Below, piece after piece: positions 4,928-20,382 of a stretch of DNA of 64,000 nucleotides. A program made the translations under genes and the position numbers. How positions within the stretch are numbered: position 1 is the first letter of the stretch; each line of letters begins with the position of its first letter. The DNA comes from Gemmatimonadota bacterium. GTDB lineage: Bacteria; Gemmatimonadota; Gemmatimonadetes; Palauibacterales; Palauibacteraceae. The notes under the pieces are model-generated. The model searched no databases. It was not told the origin of the DNA and saw only the letters and a program-made list of their open reading frames with translations. The stretch lies in NCBI GenBank assembly GCA_022820995.1, contig JAJEEM010000044.1, positions 2,027 to 66,026 on the forward strand, written 5' to 3'.

Positions 4928-6856
4928 TCAGAATCCGAGCGACGCGGTCTCCCGCCTCACGTCCCCCGCGGCAGTCATCACCCCGGTCTCCGGGTCGCGC
5001 CAGGTCACCGTGGGAGCGCCGGCCCGCCAGTTCCAGAGCCCCCATGAGCGCACGTCGTGGCCCATGGCGCGCAGCGCTTCGGCCGTCTCCGCCGGGATCC
5101 GGTCCTCCATGTAGAGGACGGCGGGATTCCGGTTCACCTCGCTGCCGGTAGCCGGGAAGTTGTAGCTGCCGAAACGGGGCTGGTCCACGGCCTGCTCGGG
5201 GGACATCCCCCACACCACGACGTTGAGGAAGACCTGCAGGAGACACTGCATCTGCTGGTCGCCACCCGGGGTGGAGAGCCCCATGAACGGTTCGCCATCC
5301 CTCATCACGAGAAGGGGCGAATTGGTGTTCCGCGGGCGCTTTCCGGGCGCCATCACATTGGCAAGGTCCGGGTCCAGGTTGAACTGGCCCATGCGGTTGC
5401 CCAGCCCGAATCCCCATCCCGGAATCATGGGGGTGAACGTGTGGCCGTCGCTCTCGGTGACGGAAAACACGTTGCCCTCGGCGTCCATCACATTCAGCGA
5501 AGACGTGTCGAACGAGGGAGCCTCCGAATCCGCCGCGTCGGCCCCCGGGAGGTCCTGCACAGCGCCTGCGGGCCGACCTCCCGGCGCCACGAAGCTCGCG
5601 GGCGCGCCCTCCGCCACCGCCGCCATACGTACCGGATCGCCCCACGGAGGCATGTCCCGGAACGCGCGATTCTCGTCGATGAGCCCGATGCGCTCGCGCG
5701 CGTACGCCTTCCCGTACAATCCCTCCGGAGCGGGCGCGAAATCCGGATCCCCGACGTACCTGTGGGCGTCCGCCATCGCGAGGTCGATCACCTGTGAGAC
5801 GAGGTGGATGTACTCCGGCGTGTTGTAGCCGAGGGCGCGCAGGTCGTAGTTCTCCAGCATGTTGAGCATCAGGATGATGCGCGGCCCCTGACTCCATCCG
5901 TCGCCGGCGTGGACGTCGTAGCCGTTGAAGCGGGTCCCCAGCGGCTCCTCCCACCGACTCTCGTATCCCGCCATGTCCTCGTACCGGACGATGCCGTCGT
6001 GCTCCCGGAAGAAGCGGTCCACGGCGCGCGCGGGGTCCCCCCGGTAGAAGGCGTCCCGCGCCGCGTGGATCCCGTCGGAGCGGCTTCCCCCCGCCGCCAG
6101 CGCCTGCCGCTCGGCCTCGATCATGTAGCGGATGAGCCGTCCCAGGTCGGCGTTCACCATGACATCGCCCAGCCGCTGCTCGCCGATTCCGTTGGGAAAC
6201 CAGAAATCGCGATTGTAGGGAAAGGCGAGGATCTCCTCCGTCTGATCCTCGATCATCCATTTCTGCATCTTGTAGAGGTGATAGCCCTCCTCGGCGATGC
6301 GCAGCGTGGGCTGCGCGGCCTCGCCGAAGCTGAGGGTGCCGAAGCGGTCGAGAGCGGCGAGCCAGACATCCACGTCCGCGGGAATCAGCGCGTTGTTGAT
6401 GGGCGACTTGCCGTGTTCGAGGAAATGGTCGAGGGTGGCGAGCGCGGGGGAGGTTCCCGCCCCGACCCGGGTGATCACGCGGTCCTCGGCCGCGCTGTAC
6501 ACGATGAGCGGCGCGACCCCGGTCCATCCCGCGTAGTCCATCTTGAGCGCCTTGAGCGCCATCCCCGCGGTCACCCCGGCGTCGAAGGCGTTGCCGCCGG
6601 CCCGGAGCACGTCGTAACCGGCCTGCGTGGCGAGATAGTGCCCGGAGGAGATCACCCCGTGCGTGCCCATGATCCGCGGCCGCATCGCCTCGACGTTGTC
6701 GGCGTCGTGGACGGCGCCGTGACTCCGGAACGGAGCGATGGTGGCGAGGACGCCTTCCTCGGCGGCTGCGGACTCCTCCGGGGCGTCCATCCCCGGACCG
6801 CACGACGCGACGAGTGCCAGAGCTGCGACCGCAACCACACGTCCGAAAGGCTTCAT
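4928..6856 (-). CDS. ggt: Gamma-glutamyltranspeptidase, lipoprotein
   Basis: 642 aa with the lipobox LVASC signal and a GGT-family layout including the conserved T-nucleophile region. It starts 4 nt after the qhpE stop on the same strand. Confidence 0.8.
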   Translation of the reverse strand: MKPFGRVVAVAALALVASCGPGMDAPEESAAAEEGVLATIAPFRSHGAVHDADNVEAMRPRIMGTHGVISSGHYLATQAGYDVLRAGGNAFDAGVTAGMALKALKMDYAGWTGVAPLIVYSAAEDRVITRVGAGTSPALATLDHFLEHGKSPINNALIPADVDVWLAALDRFGTLSFGEAAQPTLRIAEEGYHLYKMQKWMIEDQTEEILAFPYNRDFWFPNGIGEQRLGDVMVNADLGRLIRYMIEAERQALAAGGSRSDGIHAARDAFYRGDPARAVDRFFREHDGIVRYEDMAGYESRWEEPLGTRFNGYDVHAGDGWSQGPRIILMLNMLENYDLRALGYNTPEYIHLVSQVIDLAMADAHRYVGDPDFAPAPEGLYGKAYARERIGLIDENRAFRDMPPWGDPVRMAAVAEGAPASFVAPGGRPAGAVQDLPGADAADSEAPSFDTSSLNVMDAEGNVFSVTESDGHTFTPMIPGWGFGLGNRMGQFNLDPDLANVMAPGKRPRNTNSPLLVMRDGEPFMGLSTPGGDQQMQCLLQVFLNVVVWGMSPEQAVDQPRFGSYNFPATGSEVNRNPAVLYMEDRIPAETAEALRAMGHDVRSWGLWNWRAGAPTVTWRDPETGVMTAAGDVRRETASLGF

Positions 6857-6860
6857 CGCG

Positions 6861-7613
6861 TCATCCTACGGGCAGCGCCGCCAGTGCGGCCAGCGCGGCG
6901 GCCCGGCCGCGCGCGTCCGGGAAGAGTTCGAACGCGAGGGCGACGATGCCGGTCGCGTTCGCCACGGCGAAGCTGATGCCGTTGAGGTTGCGCGTCGGCG
7001 GGACGCCCGGGATCGGCCGAGGGTAGCCCGACGCATACAGCACGCGCCGCCCATCGCGGCGCCCGATGCGGACGCGGTGCCGCGGCAGATCCCAGTCGAG
7101 GCACACGCCGAGTGCGCCGGGGAGGCTGCCCGGGAACTGACGCTGTCCTTCGTGCGAATAGGCCGCGATGACGAGCGTTCCGGCCCGCGCGGCGCACTCG
7201 ACCGCGGGCTGCAGCTGTTCGATGCGGCTCTGCCGCGGCGTCCCGAGGCTCAGATTGGCCAGCCGGCAGCCGCGCTCCCCGGCCCAGTCGATGGCCTTCG
7301 CCAGCGTCCGGGCGCTCGTCGCAAGTTCGTCGTGAAAGACGCGGGCGACGTGGACCCGCGAGCCCGGCGCCTTCTCCTGGATGGCGGCGGTGACGGCGGT
7401 CCCGTGGCCCAGCCGGTCCGTCAGGTCGTCGTGCTCGCGGCCGTCGGGAGTGAACGCGATGCCGCCCGCCAGGAGCCCCAGGTGCGGATGGCCCGGATGC
7501 GCCCCGCTGTCGATGACCGCGATCGAGACGCCCCGGCCGGTCCGGCTCCAAAGCGGTTCCGCGCGCATCCGCACGGAGGGCGCCACGGGCGGTCCCGGCA
7601 CCGCCGCCGTCAC
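6861..7613 (-). CDS. qhpE: Small subtilisin-like (S8) serine protease, QhpE-like leader peptidase
   Basis: 250 aa with the D/H/S triad motifs VIDSG, HGTAV and GISFA. It overlaps the upstream ABC gene stop with ATGA. Confidence 0.75.
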   Translation of the reverse strand: MTAAVPGPPVAPSVRMRAEPLWSRTGRGVSIAVIDSGAHPGHPHLGLLAGGIAFTPDGREHDDLTDRLGHGTAVTAAIQEKAPGSRVHVARVFHDELATSARTLAKAIDWAGERGCRLANLSLGTPRQSRIEQLQPAVECAARAGTLVIAAYSHEGQRQFPGSLPGALGVCLDWDLPRHRVRIGRRDGRRVLYASGYPRPIPGVPPTRNLNGISFAVANATGIVALAFELFPDARGRAAALAALAALPVG

Positions 7614-9328
7614 CCGGCGAACAGGGCGCGGAACGCACCCGGTCGACCGTCGAGCTCCGCCGGCCGGCCATCCTGCGCGACCCGCCCGTCGCGGAGCACC
7701 ACGACGCGCTCCGCCCGTCGCGCGAGCTCCGGGCGATGCGTGATGAGCACCGTGGTCCGCCCCCGCATCAGCGCCGCATAGCCCTCGAGCACCTGCGCCT
7801 CCGAGGCCGGGTCCAGCGCCCCTGTCGCCTCGTCGAACACGAGCACGGCCGGATCGGCCAGGAAGGCCCGCGCCACGGCCACGCGCTGCCGCTCGCCGGC
7901 GGAGAGCTGCCGGCCCCGCTCTCCGACGACCGTCCCGGCCCCCTCCGGAAGCGACGCGAGCAGCCCATCGAGCGCGGCGGCCGCGAGCGCCCCGACGACC
8001 TCCGGATCCGTGGCGTCGGGCCTGGCGTACCGCACGTTCTCGGCGATCGATGCGTGGAAGATGAACGGATCCTGCTCCACCACGGCGACGTTCCGGCGCA
8101 CGTCGGCGAGCGCGAGCGCAGTCAGGTCCCGCCCGTCCAGAAGCACCCTCCCGCCATCCGGGTCGAGCTGGCGCGAGAGCAGATCCGCGACCGTCGACTT
8201 CCCGCTCCCGCTCGCGCCGACGAGCGCGACGACCTGCCCGGCGGGCACCTCCAGCGACACGCCTTCCAGCACCTCGCCTCCGCGCCCGAAGCCGAGCCTC
8301 ACGTCGTCGAAAACCAGGGCCCCCGCCGCCCTCGCCAGCCGCTCCGCCCCCTCCGCCTCCACGACCTCCAACGGCGTGTCGAAGAGTTCATGGACGCGGA
8401 CGAGCGACGCCCGCGCGCTCGCGAGGTTCGCGTACAGCCCCATCAGCGCCTGCACGGGGAAGAGGAGCCGCATCTGGTACGCCATGAACGCGACGAACGT
8501 CCCCAGCGTCGTCGCCTCCGTGATGACCCGGTAGCCCCCGTACAGGAAGACGGCGGCCGTCCCCGTCTGCAGGAGGACCCCCGGCAGGCCTCCCGCCAGG
8601 TACGTGAACCAGCGCATCGACATCAGGGCCCGCACGAACCGGTCGTTGTGGCGCCCGAACCGCGCCGCCTCCCGCTCCTGCGCGTTGGAGGCCACCACCG
8701 TCCGCACCCCCTGCAGCGTCTCGATGAGGAAGCTCCCGATGTCCGCGCTCCGCTCCCGCAGTTGCGTCACGCGCCCCTCGAGCCGGTTCCGGTACCTCAC
8801 CAGCGCCCAGAGGCTCGGCGGCAGCGCGATGAGACCCGCCAGGAAGAGCCGCGCATCGAGATGGATGAGCATCCCCACGGTCCCGATGAGGAAGAGCACG
8901 TTCCCGAACAGCCCGAGCGCCGCGTCCGCCGTCACCCGCTGGATCTCGCCGATGTCGGCGTTGATGCGCGAGACGATGTCCCCGAACGGCGTCCGTGCGT
9001 AGAACCGCGGCGAGAGCCTCTGCAGGTGGCGGTAGAGCGCCAGCCGCATGTCGAAGAGGATGCCGGCCGACACCCGCGTGTACCGCATCCCGCTCGCGAC
9101 GTTCGTCCCGAAGGCGAGAATCGTGATCCCGATGAAAAGGCCGACGATCCTGAGCAGGAGAGGGAAGTCGCCCCCCAGGATCGCGTCGTCGATCATCGCT
9201 TTCGACAGGTAGGGGAGCGCCAGCCCGAGGGCGGTCCCGGCCGTGGAAAGGAGGACCACGGGAAGCAAGGCCCCCGCGTACGGTCGGACGTAGGCGAGGG
9301 CTCGGCGAAGGTGCGGGTCCCGGATCAC
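7610..9328 (-). CDS. qhpF: ABC exporter, fused TMD-NBD (QhpF-like)
   Basis: 572 aa. The N-terminal half has six predicted TM segments. It has Walker A GASGSGKST, signature LSAGERQRVAVARA and Walker B VLVFDEAT. Confidence 0.8.
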   Translation of the reverse strand: MIRDPHLRRALAYVRPYAGALLPVVLLSTAGTALGLALPYLSKAMIDDAILGGDFPLLLRIVGLFIGITILAFGTNVASGMRYTRVSAGILFDMRLALYRHLQRLSPRFYARTPFGDIVSRINADIGEIQRVTADAALGLFGNVLFLIGTVGMLIHLDARLFLAGLIALPPSLWALVRYRNRLEGRVTQLRERSADIGSFLIETLQGVRTVVASNAQEREAARFGRHNDRFVRALMSMRWFTYLAGGLPGVLLQTGTAAVFLYGGYRVITEATTLGTFVAFMAYQMRLLFPVQALMGLYANLASARASLVRVHELFDTPLEVVEAEGAERLARAAGALVFDDVRLGFGRGGEVLEGVSLEVPAGQVVALVGASGSGKSTVADLLSRQLDPDGGRVLLDGRDLTALALADVRRNVAVVEQDPFIFHASIAENVRYARPDATDPEVVGALAAAALDGLLASLPEGAGTVVGERGRQLSAGERQRVAVARAFLADPAVLVFDEATGALDPASEAQVLEGYAALMRGRTTVLITHRPELARRAERVVVLRDGRVAQDGRPAELDGRPGAFRALFAG

Positions 9329-9379
9329 CCGGACCTCACGAAGTCGAACGCCGGATCGAAACCGGATCGCGGGCCGGGA

Positions 9380-10465
9380 TCAGCCCGGATCGGGCACCAC
9401 GACGACGCTCGTCATGTCCGCGTCCAGCGTGACGGTGCGCAGGAACTCGAACGTCTCCTCGTCGTAGATGTCGATCGTGCTCCCGGCATTGTAGATATAG
9501 AGCTTCGTGCCGTCGGCGCTCGGCATCAACGCCATCCGCGGCCGCCCCGCGAAGGTGACGCGCCCGGCGACCCGCCGGTCCCGAAGATCGAACTTCCACA
9601 TTTCGTAATGCCCGATCTCGGACTTGAGTCCGTATCCCTTCGTCCCGTCCGGAGAGAGCGCGAACGACACCCCCTCATCGGGGCCGATGGGGTGGAACTC
9701 CACGTCCTGCCCGGCGAGGTCGACGGTCGCGATGCCCATGAGACGGCGGTTCTGGAGCGGATCCGTCATGCGGAAGAGGCCCGTGTATACGCCGTCCTCC
9801 TCCTGATAGGGACTCTGGCCGAAGGGAAGCCTCATCTGCCCCAGGCCGGGCTCGAACGGCTCGGAGATCTCCCAGCGGTCGACCTCCTCGTACGTCTCGG
9901 AATCGATCACGATGAGATCCTCCGCAAACATGTAGAGGAGGTCGCCGTCGGGGGAAAAGCGGAAGTTGGCGCCCCGGCGCAGCGTCTCGCCGGGCCACGG
10001 GATCGTGTCCGTGACCTCGTACGTCGTGAGGTCGTAGCGGAGGATGGTCGGCTCGTCGATCCGGTACCGGTCCGCAAGCTTCGTGCGGCTCTGCACGTTC
10101 ATCGCCATCCATTCCTGGCTCGGATGGACCTGAAAGGAACGGATCCACGTCCGGGTGGCGCCCTCGCTCAACGTGAACTCGCCGATGGACTCCTTGGAGG
10201 GGAGCGAGATGATCTCGATCGTCTCGAAGAACGGATCCATCACGTAAAGCCGCGACCGGTCCTCGGAAACTTCGAGACGAAGGGAGATCGGACGCTTGAC
10301 CGGGATCCGGTCCACGACTTCCTCGGTGGCCTCGTCCCAGACGAGGACTTCATTGCTGTAGTTGCCCATGTACCAGTGGGCGTTCCGGCCGTTCCCCTGC
10401 GCCTCCAGCGTCCGCGCCCCACCGAGGGCGCAGGCGAAGGCGACCACTGCGACGATGCACCGCAT
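9380..10465 (-). CDS. qhpB: Beta-propeller protein, QHNDH beta subunit-like
   Basis: 361 aa with a signal peptide and repeated SPDG/ADGTKLY blade motifs. The real start is internal to a 757-aa ORF whose N-terminal extension is R/G/P junk. It begins 8 nt after the qhpC stop. Confidence 0.7.
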   Translation of the reverse strand: MRCIVAVVAFACALGGARTLEAQGNGRNAHWYMGNYSNEVLVWDEATEEVVDRIPVKRPISLRLEVSEDRSRLYVMDPFFETIEIISLPSKESIGEFTLSEGATRTWIRSFQVHPSQEWMAMNVQSRTKLADRYRIDEPTILRYDLTTYEVTDTIPWPGETLRRGANFRFSPDGDLLYMFAEDLIVIDSETYEEVDRWEISEPFEPGLGQMRLPFGQSPYQEEDGVYTGLFRMTDPLQNRRLMGIATVDLAGQDVEFHPIGPDEGVSFALSPDGTKGYGLKSEIGHYEMWKFDLRDRRVAGRVTFAGRPRMALMPSADGTKLYIYNAGSTIDIYDEETFEFLRTVTLDADMTSVVVVPDPG

Positions 10466-10473
10466 CCGCGGGA

Positions 10474-10806
10474 TCACGGGAAGACGAGGTCCAGCTTCCG
10501 CCAGTCCTTCTGCGCCGATGCGCACTGGGACGTCCAGTCCGGCGAGTGGTTGAGCTGGTCGGGCACGTGCGCCGGCCAGAAGCAGGCGAGGTGGCAGTCG
10601 AACAGGTCGCGCTCCACCGGCTGGCACAGGCCCGCGGTCCCGCCGCTCGAGTCGACCTCCCAGCCGGGCGCGAAGACGAGCGAGCACCCGAGCGGGATGT
10701 GGGGCCCCTCCGGCCGGCTCTCGAGCCCCACGACGTCCATCTCCTCGCGGGCCACCTGCGCCTCGATGCGGCCGGCCTTCTGGTTGATCGGTTTCAGCTG
10801 TTTCAC
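10474..10806 (-). CDS. qhpC: QHNDH gamma subunit precursor (Cys-rich peptide carrying CTQ and thioether cross-links)
   Basis: 110 aa, GTG start after the SD GAGGGGGAA. The Cys/Glu/Asp/Trp register is C41-E50, C61-D67, C71, C75-W77 and C75-D83. This matches the Paracoccus gamma subunit spacing (Cys7-Glu16, Cys27-Asp33, Cys37-Trp43 CTQ, Cys41-Asp49). It ends ...DWRKLDLVFP. Confidence 0.8.
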   Translation of the reverse strand: MKQLKPINQKAGRIEAQVAREEMDVVGLESRPEGPHIPLGCSLVFAPGWEVDSSGGTAGLCQPVERDLFDCHLACFWPAHVPDQLNHSPDWTSQCASAQKDWRKLDLVFP

Positions 10807-10854
10807 GGCTTCCCCCTCGCATGCGAAGGGCGACCGGGCCCGCGCCCGGCCGCG

Positions 10855-12294
10855 TCAATGGTCGAAGCGGGACAGGTACTCCGGGTTCCGCTCCGACAAC
10901 TCCCCGTAGATCTCCAGACACGTATGCGTCCACGTCCGCACCCAGGTGCAGAAGTGCAGGTTGGGCGCGGTCGTCTCGCCGTGTCGCGTGTGCGCTTCGT
11001 GATAGCAGCCGCCCGAGCAGATCGGGCGGGCCCAGCATGTATGGCAGTCCGTCTTGTTCTTGACGTGGTGGCTCTCGAGGAAATCCTTCTGCCGCTCCCG
11101 GTCGATGCCCTCCGCGACGCTGCCGAAGCTGTGGTCGTTCGAGTACGCGAAGCGGTGGCAGAGCGACACGTCGCCCCCCGTCGTCACACCCATCAGCCCG
11201 AGCCCGGCCCCGCACGGATAGGCCTTGCTCACGCCCTTGTGGATCTCCTCCAGCGTGTCCTTCACGTTCGAGAAGCCGTGGTGCCGGTTCTCGACCGCGT
11301 GATCCAGCCAGTCGCGCGCCAACTCCCCGAACTGGCGCAGCATGCGGTCGTACCCCTCGTCCTCGATCTCGTAGTCGCGCCCGGAGGAGGTCGTGACCGG
11401 GGCGAAGCCCACCTCCCAGAACCCCATCTCCTCCGTCAGGTGCTCGTAGATCCGGTGGATGTCGAGGTTTTCGCGGGTGAGCGTCACGCGCGCGCCGATC
11501 GGGCGGGACTTGTGACGCCTGAGAAGTTCCCTGATCCGCGGCTTGACGGTCTCGTAGGAGCCCTTGCCGCTGTGGAAGACCCGCATGCGGTCCTGCATCT
11601 CCTTCGGTCCGTCGATGGAGACGGTCACGCCGATCTCGTTGTCCGCCAGCCACTCGATGATGTCGGGGCGGAGGAGCGTCGCGTTCGTCGTGAGACTGAA
11701 CTCGATCCGCTTCCCCTCCTCCTCGGCGCGCTTGCGGGCGTAGGCCACCGTGTCCTGGAGGACGGGGAAGTTGAGCAGCGTCTCACCGCCGAAGAAGGTG
11801 AGGTGCGCGACCTCGAGGGGGCCCGACTCCTTCAGGAGGAACTCGACGCTCTCCCGGGCCGTCTCGTCCCCCATGAACTTCGGGTCGTCCGTGCATGTCG
11901 TGTCGACGATCTTGTCCTCGCCGTACTCGTAGCAGTACGTGCACGCGAGATTGCACTTGTTCGTGACGTTGAGGACCATCGTCGTGAGCGGGAAGCCGTC
12001 CGGCGGCAGATCGTTCACGACCTGTTCGGCGGGAGCCCCCGCCTCCCCGATGGCTCGGATCTGCTGGAGCTCCAGCAACCCGTCGTGGACGCGGTCGACG
12101 GGGTAGCGGTCGGAAAGAGAGTTCACGACCTCGCCCGGCGCGCGGGGACCGTAGCTCAGCAGATCGAGGATCGCCGACGACGCTGCATCGATGCGGAAGA
12201 TGCCGGCCGAGGGGACGAGGTAGAGGAACCGCTCGCCTGCCGCCTCGAATGCATGGAATTCACGCAGCGCCAGTTGGCCGACGGGCTTGATCAC
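10855..12294 (-). CDS. qhpD: Radical SAM / SPASM-domain maturase (QhpD-like thioether-forming enzyme)
   Basis: About 479 aa with CNLACTYC (CxxxCxxC) and a C-terminal Cys-rich SPASM region (CGAGLG...CHRF, CHTCWARPICSGGCYHEA). The GTG start overlaps the qhpA stop (GTGA). Confidence 0.85.
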   Translation of the reverse strand: MIKPVGQLALREFHAFEAAGERFLYLVPSAGIFRIDAASSAILDLLSYGPRAPGEVVNSLSDRYPVDRVHDGLLELQQIRAIGEAGAPAEQVVNDLPPDGFPLTTMVLNVTNKCNLACTYCYEYGEDKIVDTTCTDDPKFMGDETARESVEFLLKESGPLEVAHLTFFGGETLLNFPVLQDTVAYARKRAEEEGKRIEFSLTTNATLLRPDIIEWLADNEIGVTVSIDGPKEMQDRMRVFHSGKGSYETVKPRIRELLRRHKSRPIGARVTLTRENLDIHRIYEHLTEEMGFWEVGFAPVTTSSGRDYEIEDEGYDRMLRQFGELARDWLDHAVENRHHGFSNVKDTLEEIHKGVSKAYPCGAGLGLMGVTTGGDVSLCHRFAYSNDHSFGSVAEGIDRERQKDFLESHHVKNKTDCHTCWARPICSGGCYHEAHTRHGETTAPNLHFCTWVRTWTHTCLEIYGELSERNPEYLSRFDH

Positions 12295-14063
12295 GGAACC
12301 AGCCTCCCCGTGGGAACCCCCTGCCAGGGGTCGAACTTGAGGTAGAGCGGCACCGTCACGATGAGGTGCGCCCGCGCGCGGAGACTCCGGGAAGCACCCG
12401 CATCGGCGTCGGAGCCCGCATAGGTCGCGACGATCCACACGTCGCCGACGTTGTTCCGGCTGCCCGTGCGGTCGGTATTCGGGCCATCGATCGCGGGGGT
12501 GAAGACGCCGTCGGACCCGAGCGCCCCGACGTATTGGATGTCGTCGTCGTCGAAGGTCGCCGCGTACTCCTCCATGCTCCAGGTCACCGGCACGCGCCCG
12601 AGCCGGAGATCGTCCTCCGTGTTCGGTTCTCCGTCGGGGCCGTCGTCCCACCCGATCGCGTCGTAGGGCTGATATCCCTTGGGAAAGGCCCCGCCGCCGA
12701 TCCGGGCCATGCCCGCGCGCGGCGTCACCTCGAGGCGGTCCACGCCATCGTGCACCTGAATCGCGCCCCGAAGGCTCGCGCCGGCGAGGAAGAGGTCGCG
12801 CTCCCCGACCGGTGCGTCATCGTCGACGGAAAGGCGGATCGTAATCCGGTCCCCATCGCCGCCCGTGGCGGACTCGACGCGGACACCGCGACCGAAGTCG
12901 AAGTCCGCCGGGTCGGGGTTCGCCGGCAGGTTCGCGCCGTGGACCCGGAGTTCGGCGGACGACGCGACGCGGATCGCCCGCGGGTGGACGCCCGATACGA
13001 CGGGGCCGCCGCTCACGCGGGTCAGCTTCACGTCGGGGCCGAACTCGTCGTACGCGCCCCTGAACCAACGGCCGGTCATCTCCTGCCAGTCGCGGTCGAC
13101 GGTCATGACCTCGCGCAACTCGTCCTGACCGCCCGGATTCGAACGCCCGCGCCACTGGTAGCCGGTATAGACGATGGACTGCCCGCTCCGGCTCTCCTGC
13201 TCCCCCGACTCCGCGTATGCGTACGTGATCGCGGTCCGGAATTCATCCGGGGCGTCGCCGGCGGTGATCTCCACCGTTCCGAAGACCTGCCCCTTCCCGG
13301 GCTCGAACCCGGCCAGCGCCCATGTGCCGGCGAGACGCGGCGTCCGCATCGAGGCCGACCAGGCGGACCACTCCGGCGTCTCGAGCGGGAAGGCTTCGGA
13401 GAGGTGGTCGATCGCCTCGTCCACGGGCTGGGGACCATCGCCCCCGCCCTGGAAGGCCTGGAAGTCGACGAGCGGGTAGAGACCGCGGTGCGTCGCCATG
13501 AGGAGTTCCCACTCCTCGCGCGTGCGTCGCTGGGTGATGACGCGGCCCATGCTGTGGCACTGGATGCAGGTGTTCTCGACGTCGCGGTCCGCCTCGTAAA
13601 CGTGCTCGATGAGGCGTCGCTCGACCTCGAAGCGGCCGGGCTCGAGTTCCTCCGGAGCGAGCCCCTGCCGGTTGGAGAGATAGCGCACGACCTCGCGCGC
13701 CTCATCGGGACCGAGGGAGACGTCGTTGAGCGCGACCATCCGGCGGACCGACGTCTGCCACCCTTCCGGCGTCTTCCGCTCGTAGGAGATCCGCGTCATC
13801 CGCCCCTCGTCATCGCGCTCGTGACAGCGCTGACAGCGGACGATGATGACCTGGCTGTCGATCGGATAACCCTCGTCGTCGGCCTGCCCCGGGGCTCCCG
13901 CGGTGCCGGCGAACCGAGCCGAAGCGAGGTCGACGGCCGGAGTCGAGGGCATGTCCGGGACCGGAGGCAGAGCGCGCGCGCCGAGGAAAACCAGCGCGCC
14001 GACGGCCATTGCGGCCGCCGGCAGTCGGTCAAGTGCCCGTCGCGTAGTCGCTTTGCGTCTCAT
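12291..14063 (-). CDS. qhpA: Diheme cytochrome c, QHNDH alpha subunit-like
   Basis: About 590 aa. The ATG at 14063 follows a GGAGGA SD. It has a signal peptide and two CxxCH heme motifs (CQRCH, CIQCH) followed by a large beta-rich C-terminal region. Confidence 0.8.
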   Translation of the reverse strand: MRRKATTRRALDRLPAAAMAVGALVFLGARALPPVPDMPSTPAVDLASARFAGTAGAPGQADDEGYPIDSQVIIVRCQRCHERDDEGRMTRISYERKTPEGWQTSVRRMVALNDVSLGPDEAREVVRYLSNRQGLAPEELEPGRFEVERRLIEHVYEADRDVENTCIQCHSMGRVITQRRTREEWELLMATHRGLYPLVDFQAFQGGGDGPQPVDEAIDHLSEAFPLETPEWSAWSASMRTPRLAGTWALAGFEPGKGQVFGTVEITAGDAPDEFRTAITYAYAESGEQESRSGQSIVYTGYQWRGRSNPGGQDELREVMTVDRDWQEMTGRWFRGAYDEFGPDVKLTRVSGGPVVSGVHPRAIRVASSAELRVHGANLPANPDPADFDFGRGVRVESATGGDGDRITIRLSVDDDAPVGERDLFLAGASLRGAIQVHDGVDRLEVTPRAGMARIGGGAFPKGYQPYDAIGWDDGPDGEPNTEDDLRLGRVPVTWSMEEYAATFDDDDIQYVGALGSDGVFTPAIDGPNTDRTGSRNNVGDVWIVATYAGSDADAGASRSLRARAHLIVTVPLYLKFDPWQGVPTGRLVP

Positions 14064-14166: not shown

Positions 14167-15708
14167 TCACGGGTCGGTCAGCTCGAGGAAGCCCGCGCCC
14201 ACCGCGAACGAGAGGGCGGCCAGGAAGTCCGGGAGCGGCACCGCCGTCCCGCGCCGGTTGTACGCCTCGAACAGGTCGGGCACCTGATCGGAGTCCGGCG
14301 CGATCTCCGTGAGCCGGCGGAGGTCGACGTTGCGTACGTAGCGCGCGCCGTCCGGGAGTCGGTCGGAGATAAGGCGCGCCTCGAGGGCGATCCGGTCCTC
14401 GACGACGGCGGGCCGTCGCACGCTCGAGAGTCGCGCCGCCGGGCGCAGGTGCACGGCCGGCAGCGAACGGATCGTCTCCCACGCCGTCCGCACTTCCGGG
14501 CGCCCCAGGAAGGCGTCGACCCGGCGTTCCGCGAGCGGGCGGTCTCCGGGTTCCGACACCGCGGGCGCTCCGGGCGCGGAGGCGGGCCCCGGGAGGTCCG
14601 CGCCCGCTTCCCGCGCCGCAGCCAGGCGAACCTCCCAGAACGCGTGGTCGTTCGCGGCGGCGGCCTGCTCGAAAAAGGGGACGGAGAGCACCCGGTAGGT
14701 CCGGTACACATCGCGTTCCCGGTCGTCGTACAACTCGCAGGCCGGCCCGACCATCGTCTCATCGTCCAGCGCCGTGTGAGTGACGATCGCGGCGAGCCAG
14801 GCGGAGGCGAGCGCCTTCTTGACCCCGTACGAGGAGAGGGGGTCGATGAAGGAGCCGGCGTCGCCGACGAGGAGCAGGCCCGGCCGGCCGTGCGAGGCTG
14901 CGCCGTAGAGCGACGCGGGGCAGGCGCGCACCGGCCCGTCCAGCCGTCCGTCGGCGAGGCGCTCGGCGAGCCGCGCCGCCTTGGCGAGTTCGGCGCGCCA
15001 CATGCCGTCGAGGCCCTTCTCGCGCGCCAGGTGCGTGCGGCGCGGGTCGACCATCGCCGTAACGCAGCGGGTACGCGGCGATGTCGGCACCGACCAGGCC
15101 CACCCGTCCGCGTAGCTCTCGATGAGCGTACAGCCGGGGTCCGGCGGAGCGTGCCCGCGGCCCGCGGTCCAGCGGCCGACGAGCGCGAGCGTGGCGATCC
15201 CGCGTTCGCGCGCCCGCAGCCCGCGCCGGGCGAACACCCCGGCCCGCCCGGAGGCGTCGAGCACCCAGCGACCCCGGTAGCGCGCGGTCGAGGTGGCGAC
15301 GCGCCAGCCATCGGGCTCCTCGGCCGTCTCGATGACCGGTCCGTCCGTCACGAGGCGCACGCCCGCCTTGCGGGCCACTCCGTGGAAGACGGCTTCAAGC
15401 GCCGCCCGATCCGCATGGAAACCATGCTCGGGCGCCCCGAACCGTTCTTCACGGCGGGGCATCCCGGCCCACCAGACGGTGTTGCCCTCGTTCGGCACGA
15501 GGCCCGCCGCGTCCAGGGCTTCCAGCGCTCCCACGCGTTCGAGGAGCTTCCGCGCCGAGCCGGGGATCGACTCGGCGAGCCATTTCGCCGGCGGCGCCGG
15601 CCGCGTGATCAGCGCTACGTCATGCCCGCGCCGCGCCAGCGACGCGGCGGCGGCGCAGCCGGCCGGCCCCCCGCCGACAACAACGACGTCGTACGGCGTA
15701 CCTGTCAG
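14167..15708 (-). CDS. qhpG: FAD-dependent monooxygenase (QhpG-like, tryptophan-halogenase/hydroxylase fold)
   Basis: The GGGPAG dinucleotide-binding motif (YDVVVVGGGPAG) lies upstream of the first in-frame GTG (15534). There is no ATG/GTG/TTG between the upstream in-frame TAA (15715-15717) and that motif. A CTG at 15708 gives a canonical Rossmann N-terminus. Confidence 0.65.
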   Translation of the reverse strand: MTGTPYDVVVVGGGPAGCAAAASLARRGHDVALITRPAPPAKWLAESIPGSARKLLERVGALEALDAAGLVPNEGNTVWWAGMPRREERFGAPEHGFHADRAALEAVFHGVARKAGVRLVTDGPVIETAEEPDGWRVATSTARYRGRWVLDASGRAGVFARRGLRARERGIATLALVGRWTAGRGHAPPDPGCTLIESYADGWAWSVPTSPRTRCVTAMVDPRRTHLAREKGLDGMWRAELAKAARLAERLADGRLDGPVRACPASLYGAASHGRPGLLLVGDAGSFIDPLSSYGVKKALASAWLAAIVTHTALDDETMVGPACELYDDRERDVYRTYRVLSVPFFEQAAAANDHAFWEVRLAAAREAGADLPGPASAPGAPAVSEPGDRPLAERRVDAFLGRPEVRTAWETIRSLPAVHLRPAARLSSVRRPAVVEDRIALEARLISDRLPDGARYVRNVDLRRLTEIAPDSDQVPDLFEAYNRRGTAVPLPDFLAALSFAVGAGFLELTDP

Positions 15709-15714
15709 GTCGGC

Positions 15715-16398
15715 TTACCGCTCCCGCCGCGAGAACTGCAGCAGCAGGTCGCCGCCGCTCGGCCCATCCGTCGCGAAGCAGTAGAAGCGCCCGTCACCCC
15801 CCGTCCCGCGCAGATTCTCGAGGCTGCAGCCCCGCGACCCGTGGGCCTCGTTCCACGAGGTCGGGTTCTGTCCGCCACCCACGCGGTCGTGGTGCCCGAC
15901 GAGCGCGCTCCCCTCACCGCTCGACGTCCAGTTGCCGCACGTCGTGTCCCCGTCGGCGTCCGACGCCATGCCGTTCATCAGGGACCCGGTGAGGATGTCG
16001 TGCTGGTTCGGCTGGTCGCCCCGCCCGTTCACCTCGCTGCCGGTCTCCGTGAGGATCGTGGCCTTCGTGAGGTTCGGGCCGTTGCTGTGCAGGTGCTCGA
16101 CATCCCGGGCGATCATCGTGCCCGCGTGGTTGTACCACGGCCCGTCTCCGATGCGGTCGCGCGCGTTCACGCCGCCCGCGCCCGTCGTGCTCAGGTAGGC
16201 CCGCCACATGCGGTCGGGCAGCCCCGCCGCCTCGGCCAGCGCCTCGCAGTAGGCGTCCGCGCCCTCGAGACCGCCGAGATCCGCGCCGTCCCCCGGATTC
16301 GAACTGGTGATGAAGAAGCTGATGTTCTCGTCCTGCGCTGCCGCCCCGCCCGCGCCGAATGCGAACAGGATGGCCATGAAGCCAATCGTGCGTCTCAT
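15715..16398 (-). CDS. Secreted hypothetical protein with a Cys-containing lectin-like C-terminal region
   Basis: 227 aa with a signal peptide and the C-terminal stretch ...CGNWTSS...SWNEAHGSRGC...GRFYCFA. Its stop lies directly before qhpG and in the same frame. Confidence 0.45.
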   Translation of the reverse strand: MRRTIGFMAILFAFGAGGAAAQDENISFFITSSNPGDGADLGGLEGADAYCEALAEAAGLPDRMWRAYLSTTGAGGVNARDRIGDGPWYNHAGTMIARDVEHLHSNGPNLTKATILTETGSEVNGRGDQPNQHDILTGSLMNGMASDADGDTTCGNWTSSGEGSALVGHHDRVGGGQNPTSWNEAHGSRGCSLENLRGTGGDGRFYCFATDGPSGGDLLLQFSRRER

Positions 16399-16431: not shown

Positions 16432-17457
16432 CTAACGCCGGATGTACTTTCTCATCTGACGGGGTCCGACCTCGGCCCCGTAGAGGTTGCCGTGCGCGTC
16501 GACGGCGATTCCCTCCGCGCCGCTCGTGCCGGAGGCGTCCTGATTGGGTTCCGGATCCGGGATGAAGGCCGTCACCCAGCCGGTCGCCGCGTCGCCGATG
16601 TAGATGCCGCGGAGCCACCCCTTGTTGCGGCGCGCGTTCGACTCCGAGTCCGTCGAGTAGAGGACATCGCCCTCGTCGATGAACAGTCCGCTCGGACGTC
16701 CGAACTGGTGCCAGGTTTCGAGGTGGTTCCCCTCCTGATCGAAGATCTGGACGCGGCTGTTCCCGCGATCGCCGACGAAGAGACGTCCCTGCGAGTCCAT
16801 CGCGAGCGCGTGCGGGTCGCGGAACTCGCCGTTCGCCGTGCCCATGCGTCCCCATTCCATGAGGAAGGAGCCATCGGGCGCGAACTTCACGATGCGGTTG
16901 TTGCCGCCCGCGTCGTGCCCGTCCGCCACGAAGATGCTGCCGTCGGGCGCGACGAGGATGTCCGACGGCTTGTTGAAGTGGTTCGGGCCGTCGCCGGCGA
17001 CGCCTTTCTCGCCCAGCGTCATCAGGACCTCACCCTCAGGGCTGAACTTGTAGACCACGTGTCCCCAGCCCTCCGGCACCGGCGCGTATCCCACGGCATC
17101 GGCCACCCATACGCTGCCGTCCTCCTCGACGAACATCCCGTGCGGCCACGCGATCAGTCCCGAACCGAAACTCCGCACGAGGTTCCCCTCGGTATCGAAG
17201 AGCAGGATCGGGTCGACGTCGCTCTCGACGCACAGGTTCGCGCCGCACCGCTCGCCCACCCAGATGTGTTCGCCGTCCGGGGCCGGGTAGACGGCGCTGG
17301 TCGCGCCCCACGCGCGTCCGTCGGGAAGCTGGCCCCAGCCGTCCATCGCCCTGTACGGGTTCGGCGCCGTCAACTGCGCCGCGAGCGCGCCGGCGCCCGA
17401 AATGGCCGCCGCAAGCGCGAGTGTCGCGATGAATCCGATTCGCCTTGTGCCTTGCAT
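16432..17457 (-). CDS. Secreted NHL-repeat beta-propeller protein (PAL-like)
   Basis: 341 aa with a signal peptide and repeated NHL-like blades (FVADGHDAGGNNRIVKF, FVGDRGNSRVQIFD). The real start is internal to a 685-aa ORF. Confidence 0.65.
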   Translation of the reverse strand: MQGTRRIGFIATLALAAAISGAGALAAQLTAPNPYRAMDGWGQLPDGRAWGATSAVYPAPDGEHIWVGERCGANLCVESDVDPILLFDTEGNLVRSFGSGLIAWPHGMFVEEDGSVWVADAVGYAPVPEGWGHVVYKFSPEGEVLMTLGEKGVAGDGPNHFNKPSDILVAPDGSIFVADGHDAGGNNRIVKFAPDGSFLMEWGRMGTANGEFRDPHALAMDSQGRLFVGDRGNSRVQIFDQEGNHLETWHQFGRPSGLFIDEGDVLYSTDSESNARRNKGWLRGIYIGDAATGWVTAFIPDPEPNQDASGTSGAEGIAVDAHGNLYGAEVGPRQMRKYIRR

Positions 17458-17561
17458 CCGTCCTCCTGTCCTTCCGATCCGCGCCATCCGTGTCGGGCCG
17501 AAGACGATGGGACGCCAACGGCAAAGCGGGCAAGCGGCGCAGCGGGGCGGGGTGCGGCGGA

Positions 17562-19185: not shown

Positions 19186-20382
19186 ATGAACGGAAAGCGG
19201 CGAACCCTCATCTTCGGTGTGGTCGCGGGTATCGCCCTCGCGCTCGCGTGCGGCCAGGCGGCCATGGACGACGGGGCTCAGGCCAGCGAGGGCCAGGGCG
19301 TCGAGGCGCCGATGTTCGAGGTGGATCCGTTCTGGCCGAAACCGCTGCCGGACCACTGGGTGCTCGGCTCGGCCATCGGCGTGGGTGTGGACTCGCGCGA
19401 CCACGTCTTCATCGTGCACCGCGGCAACCTCACCGAGCGCACCGAGGGCGGGGCCGACGCCGATCCGCCCATCGGCGAATGCTGCCGCGCCGCGCCGCCC
19501 GTGCTCGAGTTCGATCCGGACGGAAATCTCGTGAACGCCTGGGGAGGCCCCTCCGAGGACTACGTGTGGCCCGGCTCGAACCACGGGATCACCGTCGACC
19601 ACATGGACAACCTGTGGATCGGCGGGAACGGGCCGAACGACACGCACATCCTGAAGTTCTCCCGCGACGGCGAGTTCCTCGCCTCCTACGGCGAGCCGGA
19701 GGCGGGACCGGAACCCGACAGCCACAGCGAGACGCGCTTCAACCGCGTGGCCAAGCTCGCCTTCGACGCCTCGGCCAACGAGGCCTACCTCGCGGACGGC
19801 TACGGGGGACGCAGGGTCGCGGTGCTCGACGCATCGACCGGCGCCTTCAAGCGCTACTGGGGCGCCTACGGGAATGCGCCCGACGACACGCGGACGCCGC
19901 CCTACGACCCCGACGCGCCGCTCATCCAGCAGTTCCGCACGCCGGTGCACTGTGCCGAGCCTTCGCTCGACGGCCTCGTCTACGTGTGCGACCGCCCCAA
20001 CGACCGCATCCAGGTCTTCCAGACGGACGGCACGTACGTGGACGAGGTGCGGATCGCGCCGCGCACGCTCGGCGACGGGTCGACGTGGGACATCGCCTTC
20101 TCGCGCGACGCGGACCAGAAGTACATGTACGTCGCCGACGGGAAGAACATGCGGGTCTACATCATGGACCGCGCCTCGCTCGAGATCCTGACCAGCTTCG
20201 GGGACGGGGGCCGTCAGCCGGGCCAGTTCTTCGCCGTCCACAGCATCGCGACGGACTCGAACGGCAACATCTACACGACCGAAACCTACGAGGGGAAGCG
20301 CGTCCAGAAGTTCGTGTACATGGGCCTGGGCCCGGTACCGGCCGAGCACCAGGGACCGCCCTGGCCGCGCGGCGACCAGTAA
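19186..20382 (+). CDS. Lipoprotein NHL-repeat protein, paralog 1
   Basis: 398 aa. It has a lipobox (LALACGQ), a GECCRAAPPVLEFDPDGNLV motif and NHL blades. Confidence 0.7.
   Translation: MNGKRRTLIFGVVAGIALALACGQAAMDDGAQASEGQGVEAPMFEVDPFWPKPLPDHWVLGSAIGVGVDSRDHVFIVHRGNLTERTEGGADADPPIGECCRAAPPVLEFDPDGNLVNAWGGPSEDYVWPGSNHGITVDHMDNLWIGGNGPNDTHILKFSRDGEFLASYGEPEAGPEPDSHSETRFNRVAKLAFDASANEAYLADGYGGRRVAVLDASTGAFKRYWGAYGNAPDDTRTPPYDPDAPLIQQFRTPVHCAEPSLDGLVYVCDRPNDRIQVFQTDGTYVDEVRIAPRTLGDGSTWDIAFSRDADQKYMYVADGKNMRVYIMDRASLEILTSFGDGGRQPGQFFAVHSIATDSNGNIYTTETYEGKRVQKFVYMGLGPVPAEHQGPPWPRGDQ

Follow-up and report, generated by a model that had tools for sequence, protein, structure and literature searches.

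The open reading frame at positions 10474-10806 on the minus strand of the DNA analysed here, a stretch of 64,000 nucleotides with a GC content of about 70% (the window), almost certainly encodes QhpC, the precursor of the gamma subunit of quinohemoprotein amine dehydrogenase (QHNDH), a subunit of about 9 kDa which would be matured as in Paracoccus and Pseudomonas. The gene is an ordinary member of a known gene type and stands in a canonical maturation operon, and the genome that carries it belongs to the Gemmatimonadota and is close to Candidatus Palauibacter. From its sequence, this genome appears to hold the complete gene set for periplasmic oxidation of primary amines.

The qhp operon is known from more than 1300 bacterial species, with a gene order that varies between species (PMC7876137). 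Reports of QHNDH also include an Acidobacteria genome, and a survey of soil genomes counted qhpA among the functions that it scored. The biochemistry of QHNDH, in contrast, so far concerns two Proteobacterial enzymes whose gamma subunits have four Cys, and hence the large branch found in uncultured phyla may differ in its cross-linking or substrate range. The gene call itself adds nothing new, as the NCBI equivalog model has already named the members of this protein's 90% cluster in Palauibacter and in other Gemmatimonadota genomes. What may interest the specialist is a fifth Cys present throughout the subfamily, a Phe in place of Trp beside the CTQ residue, an insertion near the N-terminus and a very divergent beta subunit.

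The gamma-subunit gene and its operon

The features of the operon are the following, in order of transcription.

14167-15708, minus strand: qhpG, predicted flavin monooxygenase dihydroxylating the CTQ Trp; NF049967 at 226.9 bits (cut-off 240), profile positions 1-409 of 423; 7ctq_A, a peptidyl tryptophan dihydroxylase, at E = 3.7e-13
12291-14063, minus strand: qhpA, di-haem alpha subunit; TIGR03908 at 469.9 bits (cut-off 274); four QHNDH alpha-subunit domains; 1jmx_A at E = 2.9e-77
10855-12294, minus strand: qhpD, radical SAM/SPASM enzyme predicted to install the Cys-to-Asp/Glu thioethers; TIGR03906 at 564.5 bits (cut-off 453); GTG start
10811-10818, minus strand: Shine-Dalgarno-like GAGGGGGA, 4 nt upstream of the qhpC GTG, read from the sequence
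10474-10806, minus strand: qhpC, gamma-subunit precursor of QHNDH; 110 aa, GTG start, TGA stop; from the translation and profile matches
10726-10806, minus strand: probable leader of QhpC, residues 1-27; motifs K-x-[IV]-N-x-K-A and D-V-V-[GA], with putative QhpE cleavage at G27|L28
10477-10725, minus strand: mature gamma-subunit region, residues 28-110; C41-E50, C61-D67, C75-D83 and the CTQ pair C71/W77
10522-10524, minus strand: codon (TGC) of C95, the fifth Cys of QhpC; Ala in both crystallised gamma subunits
9380-10465, minus strand: qhpB, divergent beta-propeller beta subunit with signal peptide; TIGR03907 at 58.8 bits (cut-off 223), E = 4.9e-16, profile positions 7-323 of 338
7610-9328, minus strand: qhpF, ABC exporter (fused permease and ATPase), presumed exporter of the gamma subunit; ABC_membrane and ABC_tran domains, MsbA-like
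6861-7613, minus strand: qhpE, subtilisin-like leader peptidase; NF049966 (QH_SP) at 152.4 bits (cut-off 165), E = 1.1e-44; Peptidase_S8

A preliminary description of this DNA had given the coordinates of qhpC with no strand. The ORF of 110 aa is real, and it lies on the minus strand, the translation of the same interval on the plus strand being meaningless. The GTG start is confirmed by the alignment, since homologues opening with MKHLKPINQKA begin in the same column. Counted by script, the residues of interest in the product are Cys 41, 61, 71, 75 and 95, Trp 49, 77, 91 and 102, and the acidic E50, D67 and D83.

Both family profiles recognised the protein well above their cut-offs: the equivalog model NF037958 of NCBIfam (QH_gamma) at 130.6 bits over residues 1-110 (cut-off 50, E = 1.8e-38), and PF08992 of Pfam at 116.4 bits (cut-off 25, E = 5.7e-34). 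A search of PDB sequences matched two chains only, 1jmx_G of P. putida (E = 3e-22) and 1jju_C of P. denitrificans (E = 8e-22), and in both cases residues 39-110 of QhpC fall on residues 5-76 of the chain without a gap, over 72 residues at about 50% identity and with an offset of 34. The Cys spacings put forward in the preliminary description (+20, +10 and +4, with the Trp at C75+2) are all exact in the translation, and so are the distances of the acidic partners (Glu at C41+9, Asp at C61+6, Asp at C75+8). With the offset of 34, the 1jju_C alignment places C41/E50 on Cys7/Glu16, C61/D67 on Cys27/Asp33 and C75/D83 on Cys41/Asp49, while C71/W77 stand in register with Cys37/Trp43; these are the three thioether pairs and the CTQ pair of the literature (PMC8172795, PMC7876137), so that the proposed equivalence with the cross-link and CTQ positions of P. 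denitrificans is borne out by a gap-free alignment. The motifs PGWEVD, LCQP, CxWPA (here CFWPA) and DWRKLxxVFP (here DWRKLDLVFP) are present and common to 1jju_C, as had been pointed out. Because the alignment to both crystallised gamma subunits is ungapped, the spacing match is no coincidence, and no observation made here speaks against QhpC as the identity of the protein.

Three sets of homologues were compared, namely about 120 nearest ones, 80 loci from Acidobacteriota and Gemmatimonadota genomes in GTDB, and 120 Proteobacterial sequences nearest to P. denitrificans. The genomes were scanned with the pattern C[WF]WPAQVP, and as the query itself reads CFWPAHVP and escapes this pattern, the 80 loci represent sister lineages without the Palauibacter clade. 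Across these roughly 320 homologues (120 + 80 + 120) the cross-link residues are invariant, save single exceptions at C61 and at D67, each of which is kept in 122 of 123 nearest homologues; C71 and W77 are invariant in every homologue of all three sets.

The full set of seven qhp genes lies side by side on the minus strand, in the order G-A-D-C-B-F-E. The same order was found in the 29 related Acidobacteriota and Gemmatimonadota loci that are fully covered, and the other 51 agree with it over the DNA available, save one in which qhpG lies downstream of qhpE (ADCBFEG); the positions of qhpB (78 loci) and qhpF are conserved in the related loci. The stop and start codons of qhpA/qhpD (12291-12294) and of qhpF/qhpE (7610-7613) overlap as GTGA on the minus strand, which suggests that these two pairs are translationally coupled. 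Regarding the NCBIfam models, QhpD and QhpA score above the cut-offs, QhpE (152 against 165) and QhpG (227 against 240) slightly below, and QhpB (59 against 223) far below. In spite of this low score, QhpB is homologous to TIGR03907 over its full length, although a phmmer search with it against the PDB left 1jju_B and 1jmx_B unmatched and found only an S-layer protein with a YVTN propeller. It is also the least conserved protein of the operon among 78 related loci, with a median identity of 41%. QhpA carries two CXXCH motifs and a signal-like segment at its N-terminus.

The start of qhpG deserves a comment. In QhpG the Rossmann motif that binds FAD (DVVVVGGGPAGC) is encoded in frame, upstream of the first ATG, GTG or TTG at 15534 (15534-15714, minus strand), and no ATG, GTG or TTG occurs upstream of the motif, the CTG at 15708 being the only candidate start there. 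This CTG lies six bases past the stop codon (TAA) of ORF 15715-16398, and taking it as the start raises the model match of QhpG from 175 to 227 bits; thus qhpG probably starts at CTG 15708.

No regulator gene qhpR was found adjoining the operon. Four nt after qhpE there is a gamma-glutamyltransferase gene (4928-6856, minus strand; PF01019 at 310 bits; signal- or lipoprotein-like N-terminus), which is probably unrelated to the operon because it is a neighbour in none of the 80 related loci. Directly upstream of qhpG, ORF 15715-16398 (minus strand) encodes 227 aa with a signal peptide and several Cys; it matched no Pfam or NCBIfam family and is not conserved beside the operon in the related loci. 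Secreted proteins with NHL repeats (16432-17460 on the minus strand and 19186-20382 on the plus strand) flank the region upstream of the operon and resemble NF035926 (ScyF-type) weakly, the scores of 89 and 66 bits falling far short of its cut-off. Two long plus-strand ORFs, 7736-10909 (1057 aa) and 10546-12345 (599 aa), run antisense to qhpF, qhpB, qhpC and qhpD and were rejected as high-GC artefacts belonging to no significant family, a sub-threshold FG-GAP match on 10546-12345 being the sole Pfam trace on them.

By homology with the Paracoccus and Pseudomonas systems (PMC7876137), the following pathway of maturation may be proposed. The N-terminal leader of QhpC would dock the precursor on the radical-SAM/SPASM enzyme QhpD, which would link the sulfur of Cys to a methylene carbon in three thioethers, namely C41-E50, C61-D67 and C75-D83. 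After this step QhpG would dihydroxylate W77, QhpE would remove the leader, probably after D-V-V-G27, and QhpF would export the cross-linked QhpC to the periplasm. There the gamma subunit would join QhpA with its two haems and the propeller subunit QhpB, and formation of the C71-W77 link and of the quinone would complete the CTQ in the heterotrimer, where it would oxidise primary amines.

A different view of the gene would be that QhpC is no enzyme subunit at all, being instead a stand-alone RiPP precursor of the ranthipeptide type or a chance ORF of high-GC DNA. QhpD is indeed related to ranthipeptide maturases (286 bits with the PapB model, 244 bits with that of the SCIFF maturase), and long spurious ORFs do arise in high-GC DNA, the two plus-strand ORFs above being examples. 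However, QhpD passes the QHNDH-specific equivalog cut-off (564 against 453) and fails those of PapB and SCIFF, genes for the alpha and beta subunits flank qhpC, the Trp and Cys of the CTQ are conserved, and as many as 2283 homologues carry the PF08992 domain. The family-profile, PDB and homologue matches of qhpC and its neighbours refute both forms of this view, and we give it practically no weight against a QHNDH gamma subunit.

As for prior annotation, the exact protein of 110 aa is present in public collections (NCBI, ENA), and its 90% cluster includes WP_310783730.1, which is named [quoted passage not shown]; the gene call was therefore already known. The nearest homologues, at 95% identity, come from Candidatus Palauibacter and other Gemmatimonadota. 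WP_310783730.1 and WP_419167509.1, from metagenome-assembled genomes (MAGs) of Palauibacter, Gemmatimonadota or Acidobacteriota, are either in the same 90% cluster or 95% identical, and both are named as the QHNDH gamma subunit. QhpC of such Gemmatimonadota and Acidobacteriota MAGs is like the query, with five Cys, F76, D106 and the same operon order, and shows essentially no difference from it; no experimental characterisation of these proteins was found in the literature searched.

Leader peptide and cleavage site

The leader of Paracoccus QhpC has 28 aa (PMC7876137). To place this cleavage on a sequence, we applied the published length to P0299, a Paracoccus-type precursor 97% identical to the 1jju_C core, which reads MKHLTPANAKAKAFAEAQELGREDEVVA|MNSLVGC; the Paracoccus cleavage A28|M29 is derived in this way. 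MAFFT, run on the query and 120 Proteobacterial precursors, places EVVAM opposite D24-V-V-G-L28 of the query, and the extra residues of the query, SRPEGPHIP against NSL, fall downstream of this DVVG/EVVA motif. Within the clade of the query, D-V-V-[GA]-L is near-invariant and is followed by a few residues of variable length and then by a fixed G-P-H-[IF]-P-L-G-C. The leader of the query also shares K-x-x-N-x-K-A and [DE]-V-V-[AG]-[ML] with the Proteobacterial leaders, and the match to NF037958 begins at residue 1. As judged from this alignment, the leader appears to be of the non-Sec type that would serve for binding by QhpD and then be removed by QhpE.

The preliminary description had proposed a longer leader, of about 34 aa against 28. 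The six or seven extra residues do exist, but they are located past the cleavage motif, and the figure of 34 is the alignment offset read as a leader length. Because the extra residues lie after the conserved cleavage motif, it is the mature N-terminus that would be longer: the leader has probably about 27 aa and is cleaved after D-V-V-G27. On the most economical reading, the mature subunit would then have 13 residues before its first Cys, compared with 6 in Paracoccus.

The fifth cysteine

The preliminary description listed a fifth Cys, C95, as a difference from Paracoccus QhpC, and this difference is real: C95 is aligned with Ala61 of both crystallised gamma subunits. All 121 nearest homologues and all 80 Acidobacteriota and Gemmatimonadota loci have Cys at position 95, which makes C95 as conserved in these two sets as the cross-linking Cys. 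Among the 120 Proteobacterial homologues nearest to P. denitrificans, in contrast, no sequence has Cys there (98 have Ala, nine Lys, six Ser, five Asn and the rest others), and exactly four Cys are found in 118 of the 120. With its five Cys the query departs from the four-Cys pattern of the characterised gamma subunits, a pattern that does not formally define the family. The family appears split into a type with F76, C95 and D106 in Acidobacteriota and Gemmatimonadota, and a Proteobacterial type with Trp, mostly Ala and mostly Gln at these positions. C95 occurs also in at least nine distant clusters, each taken by its 50%-identity representative. In every C95-bearing sequence seen, D101-W102 follows six residues downstream of the Cys, giving a spacing C-x5-D identical to that of C61 and D67.

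Regarding the state of this residue, the translations offer no disulfide partner within the heterotrimer: the only Cys of QhpA are the four that bind haem, and mature QhpB has none, so that C95 cannot form a disulfide there. The default and most likely reading is that C95 is a conserved free (buried) thiol, although a plain free thiol would not usually be kept so strictly, and unpaired, in a periplasmic protein. An AlphaFold2 model of QhpC from an alignment of 85 sequences (mean pLDDT 52, pTM 0.32) is too poor to place C95 relative to D101 or D106.

The alternative is a fourth thioether made by QhpD, from C95 to D101 (C-x5-D) or to D106, so that the subunit would contain four bridges and the CTQ. 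The invariance of C95 in 121 and 80 sequences, with its recurrence in the distant clusters, is in favour of it, and so are the lack of a disulfide partner in QhpA and QhpB and the constant position of D101-W102; what is more, PMC7876137 lists the equivalent of D101, residue 67 ("Glu67"), as an acidic residue on the surface of the gamma subunit. D101, however, is equally invariant in proteins with four Cys (117 of 120), and hence its conservation needs no cross-link. As to D106, it goes with C95 throughout the subfamily where Proteobacteria have A95 and Q106, and two distant clusters combine C95 with a Cys at 106, yet the split between A95/Q106 and C95/D106 may reflect a single phylogenetic event, and position 106 is Gln, Thr, Asn, Lys or Pro in several lineages that bear C95. 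No strict covariation of C95 with an acidic residue 106 exists among the 50%-identity representatives, where C95 is accompanied by Gln, Thr, Asn, Lys, Pro or Cys and D106 also occurs without C95. Such an extra bridge is not described in the literature searched. We therefore regard a fourth thioether as very improbable, and as unlikely even when the points in its favour are counted generously, and retain the free thiol as the preferred reading. If the bridge did exist, QhpD of Acidobacteriota and Gemmatimonadota would make four bridges, and the "cage" of the CTQ would extend into the C-terminal segment.

The two sequences with Cys at both 95 and 106 (P0228 and P0261, from distant 50%-identity clusters) have six Cys in total. 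In these proteins the two Cys could form a disulfide, which hints that positions 95 and 106 are close in space.

Comparison with characterised systems

One of the two closest characterised counterparts is QhpC of P. denitrificans (1JJU/1PBY, chain C). Besides the ungapped core of 72 residues and the motifs noted above, the two proteins have in common all residues that are modified (four Cys, the CTQ Trp and three acidic acceptors), in register; the motifs N-x-K-A and [DE]VV[AG][ML] of the Paracoccus leader are also in the query, and all seven genes qhpA-G are also in the window. The query differs in having Phe76 for Trp42 (beside the CTQ Trp), Cys95 for Ala61 and Asp106 for Gln72, in about seven residues inserted after the cleavage motif and ahead of the first Cys, and in ending at VFP without a C-terminal tail. 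At the level of the operon, the order here is G-A-D-C-B-F-E, qhpR is not adjacent and the beta subunit is highly divergent.

For P. putida, the gamma subunit (1JMX/1JMZ, chain G) is the best PDB match of QhpC and has the same register of cross-links, and the alpha subunit is the closest to QhpA, with two CXXCH motifs in both. Compared with this gamma subunit, the query has F76 for Trp, C95 for Ala and D106 for Gly, plus the N-terminal insertion. Ranthipeptides and SCIFF peptides (PapA/PapB, freyrasin) resemble QhpC in that leader-guided radical-SAM/SPASM enzymes link the sulfur of Cys to Asp or Glu at the beta or gamma carbon (PMC8172795). The product of QhpC, however, is a subunit of a quinone-bearing enzyme and no secreted peptide, and the QHNDH cut-off is the only one of these that QhpD passes.

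The codons of F76-W77 lie at 10576-10581 (minus strand). Phe precedes the CTQ Trp in the whole Acidobacteriota and Gemmatimonadota subfamily, whereas Proteobacteria have Trp (Trp42) in this place, and a docking model for P. putida shows a hydrophobic pocket of QhpG occupied by this Trp42 (PMC7876137).
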